Source: Escherichia coli
GTDB lineage: Bacteria; Pseudomonadota; Gammaproteobacteria; Enterobacterales; Enterobacteriaceae
Direction: 5' to 3' (one strand)
DNA length: 64,000 nt
Assembly (NCBI RefSeq): GCF_003334315.1
Contig: NZ_QOWR01000003.1
Shown here: in pieces, positions 1-4,114 of the stretch
Numbering within the stretch: the stretch's first letter is position 1
How the letters are laid out: every line of letters starts with the position of its first letter
Notes under the pieces: generated by a model
What the model was told of the DNA's origin: nothing
The model's database searches: none
Seen by the model: only the letters and a program-made list of their open reading frames with translations
Position numbers and translations under genes: made by a program

Positions 1-350
1 AGATACTCCGCCTTCGCAGAAAAGTGTTCGCCATTGTCAGAGAGCGCAGAAATACGCGCGCGCTGTAACCCCTCGACCAGCACTTTGACGGTGCCGTCAG
101 GCAGCTTCAGCATCTGCAATATAGAGGCCACGGTCCCGACGGTGAAAAGATCGTTTACACCCGGCTCATCCGTTGAAGCTTCTTTCTGCGCGACCAGCAT
201 AATTTTTTTATCATGGTCCATCGCCGCTTCCAGACAACGGATAGATTTTTCCCGCCCGACAAATAAGGGGATGACCATGTGCGGATAAACCACCACATCG
301 CGCAGCGGCAATACGGGGATTTCAATGCGTTCAGAACGCTCAGGATTCAT
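1..350 (-). CDS. lon: Lon protease, N-terminal part only (gene continues past window start)
   Basis: Minus-strand frame open from window edge to ATG at 348-350; encoded N-terminus MNPERSERIEIPVLPLRDVVVYPHM is the Lon N-terminus; sits directly after clpX as in the clpP-clpX-lon cluster. Confidence 0.92.
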   Translation of the reverse strand, partial: MNPERSERIEIPVLPLRDVVVYPHMVIPLFVGREKSIRCLEAAMDHDKKIMLVAQKEASTDEPGVNDLFTVGTVASILQMLKLPDGTVKVLVEGLQRARISALSDNGEHFSAKAEY

Positions 351-433
351 AGAGCTCTCTCTTAGTTTAATTTCCGCCAGGTAATCAGATGACACGATTG
401 TGCTTCACGCCATCTATTAACATGTACGTCAGT

Positions 434-462
434 ATATGGGGATGTTTCCCCCACATTCAACG
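434..462 (-). promoter_or_regulatory. Heat-shock (sigma-32) promoter of lon
   Basis: Minus strand reads GTTGAAT-N13-CCCCATAT, matching the sigma-32 consensus CTTGAAA / CCCCATNT, about 90 nt upstream of the lon ATG. Confidence 0.6.
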
Positions 463-477
463 CCGAGAATAGAGGAA

Positions 478-510
478 AAATTAAAGGGGAGATAAAATCC
501 CCCCTTTTTG
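478..510 (-). terminator. Intrinsic terminator after clpX
   Basis: GC-rich hairpin (GGGGAGAT/ATCTCCCC arms) followed by a T-rich tract on the minus strand, about 30 nt past the clpX stop. Confidence 0.55.
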
Positions 511-537
511 GTTAACTAATTGTATGGGAATGGTTAA

Positions 538-1812
538 TTATTCACCAGATGCCTGTTGCGCTTCCGGCTTGCCATAAATCAGCAACGGTTTGCTTTGACC
601 ATCAATTACCGACTCGTCTATAACCACTTTTTCGACATCTTCCATGGACGGCAGATCGTACATGGTATCGAGCAGTGCGGCTTCTACGATGGAACGCAGG
701 CCACGGGCACCGGTTTTACGCGCCATCGCTTTCTTAGCGATAGCATCCAGCGCCTCGTCACGGAATTCCAGATCCACGCCTTCCAGATTAAACAGCGCCT
801 GATACTGCTTGGTCAGGGCGTTTTTCGGCTCTTTGAGGATCTGAATCAGAGCTTCTTCGCTCAGTTCATTCAACGTTGCGACAACCGGCAGACGACCAAT
901 GAACTCAGGGATCAGACCAAACTTGATTAGATCTTCCGGTTCAACCTGCGCCAGCAGCTCGCCTTCGCTTGCTTTGTCGGACTTCGCTTTTACCGTCGCG
1001 CCAAAACCAATGCCGGAGCCGGTTTCTACACGGTGGGAAATCACTTTATCCAGACCGGCAAACGCACCGCCACAAATAAACAGGATCTTAGAGGTATCAA
1101 CCTGCAAGAATTCCTGCTGCGGATGTTTACGCCCACCTTGCGGTGGAACAGCAGCTACCGTACCTTCGATCAGTTTCAACAGTGCCTGCTGTACGCCTTC
1201 ACCGGAAACGTCTCGGGTAATGGACGGGTTGTCTGACTTACGAGAAATCTTGTCGATTTCATCGATGTAGACAATACCACGCTGTGCTTTCTGGACATCG
1301 TAGTCGCATTTCTGCAACAGCTTCTGAATGATGTTTTCAACGTCTTCACCCACATAACCGGCTTCGGTCAGTGTAGTCGCGTCGGCCATGGTGAACGGAA
1401 CATCCAGCAGGCGCGCCAGCGTTTCAGCCAGCAGCGTTTTACCGGAACCGGTCGGACCGATCAGCAGAATGTTACTTTTGCCCAACTCGACGCCATTGCT
1501 GGTATCGCCGTTGCGCAGACGTTTGTAATGGTTGTATACCGCGACCGCCAGCACTTTTTTCGCCTGTTCCTGGCCGATAACGTAATCGTCCAGGTGGTTG
1601 CGAATTTCATGCGGCGTCGGTAGCGCACTGCGTTCACGATGCGGTGCAACTTCTTTAATCTCTTCGCGAATGATGTCGTTACATAAATCAACACATTCGT
1701 CGCAGATATACACGGATGGACCGGCAATCAGCTTGCGCACTTCATGCTGGCTTTTGCCGCAAAAAGAGCAATACAGCAATTTGCCTGAGCCATCTTTGCG
1801 TTTATCTGTCAT
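538..1812 (-). CDS. clpX: ATP-dependent Clp protease ATP-binding subunit ClpX
   Basis: 424-aa ORF; N-terminal C4 zinc motif (CSFCGK...CDEC), Walker A GPTGSGKT; expected length and position next to clpP. Confidence 0.97.
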
Positions 1813-1937: not shown

Positions 1938-2561
1938 TCAATTACGATGGGTCAGAATCGAATCGACCAGACCGTATTCCACCGCTTCAGGGGCGGAAAG
2001 GAAGCGATCGCGCTCGGTATCACGTTCAATCTGTTCTAATGATTGACCCGTATGAAGCGCCATAAGTTCATTCATGCGCCCTTTAACTTTCAGAATTTCA
2101 CGGGCATGAATTTCGATATCGGTCGCCTGGCCCTGGTAGCCGCCCAACGGTTGGTGAATCATCACGCGCGAATTCGGCAGGCAAAAACGTTTACCTTTTG
2201 CCCCTGCGGTCAGCAAGAAAGCGCCCATCGAGGCCGCCTGGCCCATACAGATGGTGCTGACATCAGGCTTGATAAACTGCATGGTGTCATAGATAGACAT
2301 CCCGGCAGTGATCACCCCGCCTGGGGAGTTAATGTACAGATAGATATCTTTTTCTGGGTTTTCCGCTTCCAGGAACAGCATCTGCGCCACAATCAGGTTA
2401 GCCATGTGGTCTTCAACCTGGCCAGTCAGAAAAATGACGCGTTCCTTAAGTAGACGAGAATAGATATCAAAAGAGCGCTCACCGCGTGAGGTCTGTTCAA
2501 TGACCATCGGCACCAGCGCCATATGGGGTGCAAAGTTATCTCGTTCGCCGCTGTATGACAT
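1938..2561 (-). CDS. clpP: ATP-dependent Clp protease proteolytic subunit ClpP
   Basis: 207-aa ORF with serine-protease active-site context GQAASMGA; upstream of clpX. Confidence 0.97.

Positions 2562-2806: not shown

Positions 2807-4114
<1,308 letters not shown>

Follow-up and report, generated by a model that had tools for sequence, protein, structure and literature searches.

A clpX terminator and a probable dual sigma-32/sigma-70 promoter of lon in the clpX-lon spacer of Escherichia coli

The window, i.e. the whole stretch of 64,000 nucleotides that was analysed, belongs to the chromosome of E. coli, and its first 4 kb contain genes in the order tig-clpP-clpX-lon, all of them on the minus strand. 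These are tig (2807..4105), clpP (1938..2561), clpX (538..1812, with its TAA stop codon at 540..538) and the 5' part of lon (1..350, with the ATG at 350), which is cut by the start of the window. The 424-aa open reading frame of clpX is annotated as such in 5,400+ E. coli genomes, and lon was recognised from its translation (MNPERSERIEIPVLPLRDVV...) and from the annotated lon genes. A megablast search with window 1..900 gave matches at >=99% identity, with annotated clpX and lon, in 5425 of 5426 complete E. coli genomes; the clpX-lon junction is intact in 5370 of the 5426 and lacks an intact form in 56. The spacer between the two genes is 187 bp long and identical to that of K-12 MG1655 (clpX end 458,700; lon start 458,888), and positions were converted as MG1655 = 458,700 + (538 - window position). 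For comparison, 120 Enterobacterales loci were retrieved with a degenerate nucleotide pattern encoding the N-terminus of Lon (MNPERSERIEIPV), giving 110 distinct clpX-lon spacers, and an alignment of 102 of them served as the conservation profile. The junction itself is an ordinary and well-known regulatory site, part of the established and already described biology of a model organism, and confirming such a textbook junction adds nothing new. A preliminary description had placed a compact terminator-promoter junction at 430-510; its coordinates hold, but it omitted the strand, the elements being on the minus one. It also passed over an overlapping sigma-70-type -10 hexamer, the antisense sraA family and a hotspot of IS186 insertion.

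The clpX gene is followed by an intrinsic terminator, the stem-loop AAAGGGGGGATTTTATCTCCCCTTT (507..483, minus strand), which was identified by a terminator scan of both strands, by its fold energy and by the comparison of spacers. The hairpin begins 30 nt past the clpX stop codon and continues into AATTTTTCC, hairpin and T-tract together occupying 507..476 (minus strand); the T-tract TTTAATTTTTCC was delimited at 474..485 (minus strand) by a mapped 3' end and by T-richness across the spacers. The stem consists of 11 pairs, 5 of them GC, and folds with -15.5 kcal/mol, the corresponding z of -1.7 in a 71-nt context being modest. Term-seq data (Adams 2021, PMC7815308) place a clpX-sense RNA 3' end within the T-tract, at MG1655 458,758 (window 480), 130 nt upstream of the lon ATG. 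This end was found in two growth conditions with an intrinsic-terminator score of 6.2, the threshold being 3.0; the region around it is additionally marked as Rho-sensitive, with a Rho score of 1.66 (Adams 2021, PMC7815308).

According to per-sequence folds, a stable hairpin with a T-run is located between the clpX stop codon and the -35 element in 110 of 111 distinct orthologous Enterobacterales spacers. At least four complementary types of stem occur (GGGGGG/CTCCCC, ATGGGGG/CCCCCAT, ATGAGGG/CCCTCAT and GTGGGAG/CTCCCAC). Per-sequence folds were used instead of RNAalifold because MAFFT aligned the clades in different registers: applied to 50 terminator segments, RNAalifold recovered the 5-pair core only, and 10 of the 50 sequences had A-U in place of a G-C pair, a double change. 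The 12 nt that follow the stem core contain 8.2 T on average (110 spacers). Thus, the clpX terminator hairpin of the preliminary description is borne out by the scan, the fold, the Term-seq 3' end at 480 and the comparison of spacers. The scan called the hairpin on both strands, as it has an A-tract on its 5' side and a T-tract on its 3' side; the A-tract is conserved (mean of 4.8 A in 8 nt, 110 spacers), and therefore the hairpin could terminate transcription in both directions. Like the symmetric intrinsic terminators that are often called bidirectional, it combines a GC-rich stem and a short loop with a U-tract on the 3' side, where the RNA end was mapped, and with an A-tract on the 5' side; its termination on the plus strand is a prediction from sequence.

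Downstream of the terminator lies the promoter of lon, whose boxes are all on the minus strand. The -35 element GTTGAAT (455..461) contains TTGAA, matching the sigma-32 consensus CTTGAA, and its TTGAAT also resembles a sigma-70 -35 element. It is followed by the 13-nt spacer GTGGGGGAAACAT (442..454), of fixed length in the 110 spacers, and by the sigma-32 -10 element CCCCATAT (434..441; consensus CCCCATNT), which was assigned on the basis of conservation, spacing and ChIP and lies 84 nt before the lon ATG (350). From the first base of the hairpin to the last base of the -10 element the junction spans 74 bp. Compared with the consensus of sigma-32 promoters, CTTGAA for the -35 and CCCCATNT for the -10 element including the CC of an 'extended -10' (PMC10216364), the hexamer GTTGAA (461..456) matches the former in 5 of 6 positions. 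In the structure of the sigma-32 open complex (PMC10216364) the dnaK P1 scaffold has CTTGAA at -35 to -30 and CCCC at -15 to -12. The separation between TTGAA and CCCC is 14 nt in lon (455..442), the same as in dnaK P1, and the alignment of the two promoters predicts the lon +1 at window 426, one base from the start site mapped in heat shock and stationary phase.

The string TTGAAT-N13-CCCCAT was found with identical spacing in all 110 distinct Enterobacterales spacers, in combination with 58 different sequences of the intervening 13 nt, and CCCCATAT is invariant in the same 110. In the profile of 102 aligned species, TTGAAT and CCCCATATA are invariant, and conservation is poor in the sequence between them and in the 15 nt that precede the -35 element. 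The sigma-32 promoter GTTGAAT-N13-CCCCATAT had been proposed at 461..434, and both the string and its coordinates proved right, with conservation in 110/110 spacers and sigma-32 ChIP binding behind them. The sigma-32 motif by itself is only mildly improbable by chance: TTGAA-N13-16-CCCCAT occurs once on both strands of the 64-kb window, the expectation being 0.11, and this loose motif has at least one match in 11 of 100 shuffles of the window. These shuffles are what could be said for a fortuitous match, with the true promoter of lon elsewhere. A chance match is nevertheless untenable, because the motif stands directly upstream of lon in a 187-bp spacer and is invariant in 110/110 orthologous spacers. 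Start sites mapped 9 to 11 nt past CCCCATAT, sigma-32 binding in ChIP and the same start position in Klebsiella argue against it as well, and its probability is regarded as negligible. The comparison of sequences shows very strong purifying selection on the hairpin structure and on both promoter boxes.

The start sites of lon have been mapped to A425 and A423 (423..425, minus strand), i.e. 9 to 11 nt past the end of CCCCATAT (434). The first, at 458,037 in Cho 2014 (PMC3923258), was covered by 1744 reads and detected in stationary phase, with glutamine and in heat shock. The second, from exponential phase, corresponds to 458,039 of the old K-12 coordinates and gives a 73-nt leader (Kim 2012, PMC3415461); the same study placed the lon start of Klebsiella pneumoniae at the homologous position, downstream of GTTGAATGTGTGGAATACATCCCCATATACTG, with the same boxes. 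Mapping of the lon start had been named as the check on the promoter, and the sites at 425 (including heat shock) and 423 lie next to position 426, predicted by the dnaK P1 alignment.

The ChIP-chip data attached to the start site at 425 are labelled 'DH', standing for sigma-70 and sigma-32, and the 'binding + motif' entry is also DH (Cho 2014, PMC3923258). An overlapping sigma-70-type -10 hexamer, TATACT (431..436, minus strand), was recognised by the scan, by conservation and from this sigma-70 binding. Combined with the -35 element as TTGAAT-18 nt-TATACT, it scores 9/12 against the sigma-70 consensus, the register of the sigma-70 -10 element not being resolved by ChIP-chip. Conservation extends two bases past the sigma-32 core (CCCCATATAcT), the final T (431) being invariant and the C present in ~80%. 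The invariant T beyond the sigma-32 core, together with the sigma-70 ChIP signal, supports a dual sigma-32/sigma-70 promoter. The statement that lon keeps heat-shock control stands as far as sigma-32 binding and a start site active in heat shock are concerned, but the promoter is not purely a heat-shock one, because it is also bound by sigma-70 and has a conserved sigma-70-type -10 element. The offset of 2 nt between A423 and A425 equals that between the two -10 registers, in which A437 or A435 takes position -11. The match between these offsets is suggestive only, since the two start sites come from different data sets and the shift may be technical.

According to the classical literature, transcription of lon rises on temperature upshift in a manner dependent on rpoH. 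The heat-shock promoter of lon (capR) is a classic member of the sigma-32 (RpoH) regulon, reportedly mapped in Gayda 1985, Chin 1988, Cowing 1985 and Nonaka 2006. The promoter described here occupies the same locus, and its sequence is that of the 50 nt which Kim 2012 and Cho 2014 print upstream of the mapped start. Nothing distinguishes it from the classic promoter, the identity of the two resting on the genome-wide data sets and on the classic papers. A search of the full-text literature with the promoter sequence gave no match, and Shimada 2017 and a study of heat-evolved strains contained nothing specific to the lon promoter.

Taken together, the data are best described by a clpX terminator followed by a separate, dual sigma-32/sigma-70 promoter of lon on the minus strand, a reading to which we assign a probability of about 0.93. 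Polymerase transcribing clpP-clpX stops at the Rho-independent terminator, releasing RNA that ends at 480 in the U-tract after the hairpin 507..483, and transcription of lon starts afresh 55 nt downstream (counted to 425), at A425 or A423. With sigma-32, the -35 sequence TTGAA and the -10 element CCCCATAT, separated by 14 nt as in dnaK P1, would provide induction by heat shock; with sigma-70, the shared -35 element TTGAAT followed after 18 nt by TATACT would probably provide basal expression. Each sigma factor presumably uses its own -10 register.

The preliminary description regarded lon as insulated from clpX transcription, and the terminator is probably efficient enough to make the expression of lon largely independent of clpPX. 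As clpP-clpX is itself bound by sigma-32 (Cho 2014, PMC3923258), the terminator would separate transcript levels, not heat-shock control. Coverage on the two sides of the 3' end at 480 is equal, 361 upstream vs 353 downstream (Adams 2021, PMC7815308), which is uninformative on termination because the lon promoter fires just downstream. Two weak start sites were reported inside the 3' half of clpX, at 457,517 and 457,701 of the old MG1655 numbering, with 82 and 166 reads (Cho 2014, PMC3923258); they correspond to window positions of about 945 and 761 (minus strand). One of them was active in heat shock only and the other with glutamine and in heat shock, and both were assigned to lon units (PMC3923258), which would need read-through of the terminator, so that some read-through is possible. 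No clpX entry was found in the SMRT-Cappable-seq supplements.

These weak sites, the Rho-sensitive flag on the terminator region and the binding of sigma-32 at clpP, clpX and lon alike would fit a leaky hairpin, with clpP-clpX-lon being largely one operon and the lon promoter merely adding to read-through without any insulation. Such an arrangement is unlikely in view of the distinct Term-seq 3' end with its intrinsic score of 6.2 in two growth conditions, the 1744 reads at the lon start against 82 and 166 at the sites within clpX, and a terminator structure kept in 110/111 spacers. It is also at odds with the Lon deficiency reportedly caused by IS186 in the promoter, which would be unexpected with ample read-through, although the IS may itself block read-through.

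The 5' UTR of lon (351..425, minus strand), as seen in the conservation profile, is not uniform. Its last 35 nt (385..351, TTACCTGGCGGAAATTAAACTAAGAGAGAGCTCT), including the Shine-Dalgarno region, are almost invariant in 102 Enterobacterales. This conservation is far above what a Shine-Dalgarno sequence needs and, judged from the alignment, suggests an undescribed translational or regulatory element. A significant region of Rho termination starts inside the leader, at window ~407 (minus strand; MG1655 458,831; Adams 2021, PMC7815308), and may reflect premature termination either of lon transcripts or of read-through from clpX. Inside the lon coding sequence, the consensus scan also picked up a terminator-like hairpin (293..316, minus strand) and a sigma-70-like site (118..146, minus strand), which are probably chance matches.

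The same bases are claimed on the opposite strand by a putative small RNA. The model of sraA (RF02029), a curated sRNA family of Rfam, matches 422..517 of the plus strand over its full length with 106.7 bits, the gathering score being 56; the match is antisense to the lon promoter and shares the clpX hairpin. Thus SraA (psrA3/t15) coincides with the lon promoter and the clpX hairpin in sequence and differs from them in strand and in the claimed product. Matches to the DapZ, L20 leader and leuA-Halobacteria models were far below their thresholds and were attributed to chance. The original Northern evidence for SraA reportedly stems from Argaman 2001. A review of Salmonella sRNAs (PMC3384567) places SraA between clpX and lon, and the sRNA list of EcoCyc still contains it (PMC12306157); overexpression of SraA had no phenotype in one screen.

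It is therefore conceivable that the conserved elements belong mainly to sraA, the hairpin being the terminator of SraA and the conserved blocks its sequence. The full-length match of 106.7 bits would agree with this, as would matches that exceed the threshold at the same place, antisense to lon, in 14 of 18 diverse Enterobacterales loci, the symmetric hairpin, whose conserved 5' A-tract would allow termination on the plus strand, and the listing of SraA as an sRNA of both E. coli and Salmonella. The pattern of conservation points the other way. Besides the shared hairpin, the columns conserved in the model correspond to CCCCATATACT and GTTGAAT in reverse complement. Invariance coincides exactly with TTGAAT and CCCCATATAcT, held at a fixed distance while the sequence between them varies freely, which is the signature of a promoter rather than an RNA helix. 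As for the 5' hairpin of the Rfam model, it is only weakly kept, with all 5 pairs in 20 of 110 spacers and 4 of 5 in most of them; this test is permissive and its result uninformative, because G-U pairing lets any purine-rich spacer pass. In the 102-spacer alignment, conservation within the spacer is lowest in the presumed promoter region of sraA (386..421), and inspection by eye and a scan of 350..421 revealed no convincing plus-strand promoter. Neither a start site on the sraA strand between clpX and hupB in the table of Cho 2014 nor a 3' end in the sraA sense in the tables of Adams 2021 was present, and the screen without an overexpression phenotype also speaks against this view. An sRNA origin of the conserved elements is accordingly considered very improbable. 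As far as the alignments tell, the sraA family would owe most of its conservation to the lon promoter and the clpX terminator on the opposite strand.

The lon promoter also contains a hotspot for IS186. The palindrome GGGGGAAACATCCCC (452..438, minus strand) is formed by the promoter spacer and the CCCC of the -10 element, and IS junctions were seen at this site. As stated in passages of two later papers (PMC3045373, PMC7377907) that refer to saiSree 2001, this hotspot in the lon promoter is the basis of the Lon deficiency of E. coli B. The GGGG-N-CCCC target is the same as that occupied in E. coli B/BL21, but the promoter in the window is intact and uninterrupted. Among the retrieved loci, the fifth G (GTGGGGG), which completes the palindrome, is restricted to E. 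coli and E. albertii, and related genera have GTGTGGG. The match to the window breaks off at 451 in one record, with an IS186-family transposase upstream, the sequence reading ...GCGCTTATG up to the junction and GGGAAACATCCCCATAT after it. An insertion at 451 splits the -35 from the -10 element, and this junction is common to seven genomes. In the B-lineage strains BLR(DE3), C2566, C3029, BLK9 and BLK16 the match does not begin until the shared terminal repeat, a pattern that fits the opposite orientation of IS186 at the same site; in BLR(DE3) the order of genes is clpX, transposase, lon. A 128.8-kb record labelled as plasmid pEcFELIX533.1 (NZ_CP137697.1, 110185-116635) carries the chromosomal genes ybdK-hokE-IS186-lon-hupB-ppiD. 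Its chromosomal segment is joined at IS186 in the lon promoter, which suggests either excision of a circle through IS186-IS186 recombination or a misassembly.

The distances within the spacer are unequally constrained. Across the 110 Enterobacterales spacers, 46-83 bp separate the clpX stop codon from the end of the stem core (sd 6.7) and 75-276 bp separate the -10 element from the lon ATG (sd 29.6), whereas only 22-30 bp (sd 1.5) lie between the end of the GC core of the stem and the -35 element. The latter length is nearly constant though the intervening sequence is poorly conserved, and insertions flank the terminator-promoter unit on either side, none of them falling inside it. Some Enterobacter, Cedecea and Xenorhabdus loci (L031, L051, L053, L079, L093, L095 and L103) have spacers of 250-377 bp; their extra DNA is in the lon leader, downstream of the promoter, and never between terminator and promoter.

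The constant spacing raises the question of whether terminator and promoter are one co-evolving module rather than chance neighbours, their fixed distance reflecting functional coupling. We consider this unlikely. With no more than 55 nt between the 3' end of the RNA and the start of lon transcription, the junction could couple clpPX and lon. One conceivable route would be contacts of the alpha-CTD with the T-tract of the terminator, which occupies positions of about -60 to -51 relative to the lon promoter, where a distal UP-element half-site would be expected, and might act in an UP-like manner; another would be re-initiation at lon by polymerase that remains bound to the DNA once it has terminated, as described in PMC10372574.

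The practical weight of the lon promoter is known, as the occupied IS186 hotspot makes B and BL21 expression strains Lon-deficient. The conservation of sraA, apparently explained in full by elements of the opposite strand, calls for caution in the curation of sRNAs. If the terminator and the promoter do form a module, it would mean coupling of clpPX and lon instead of insulation, and the constant terminator-promoter spacing across the Enterobacterales may be used to test ideas on terminator-promoter coupling.
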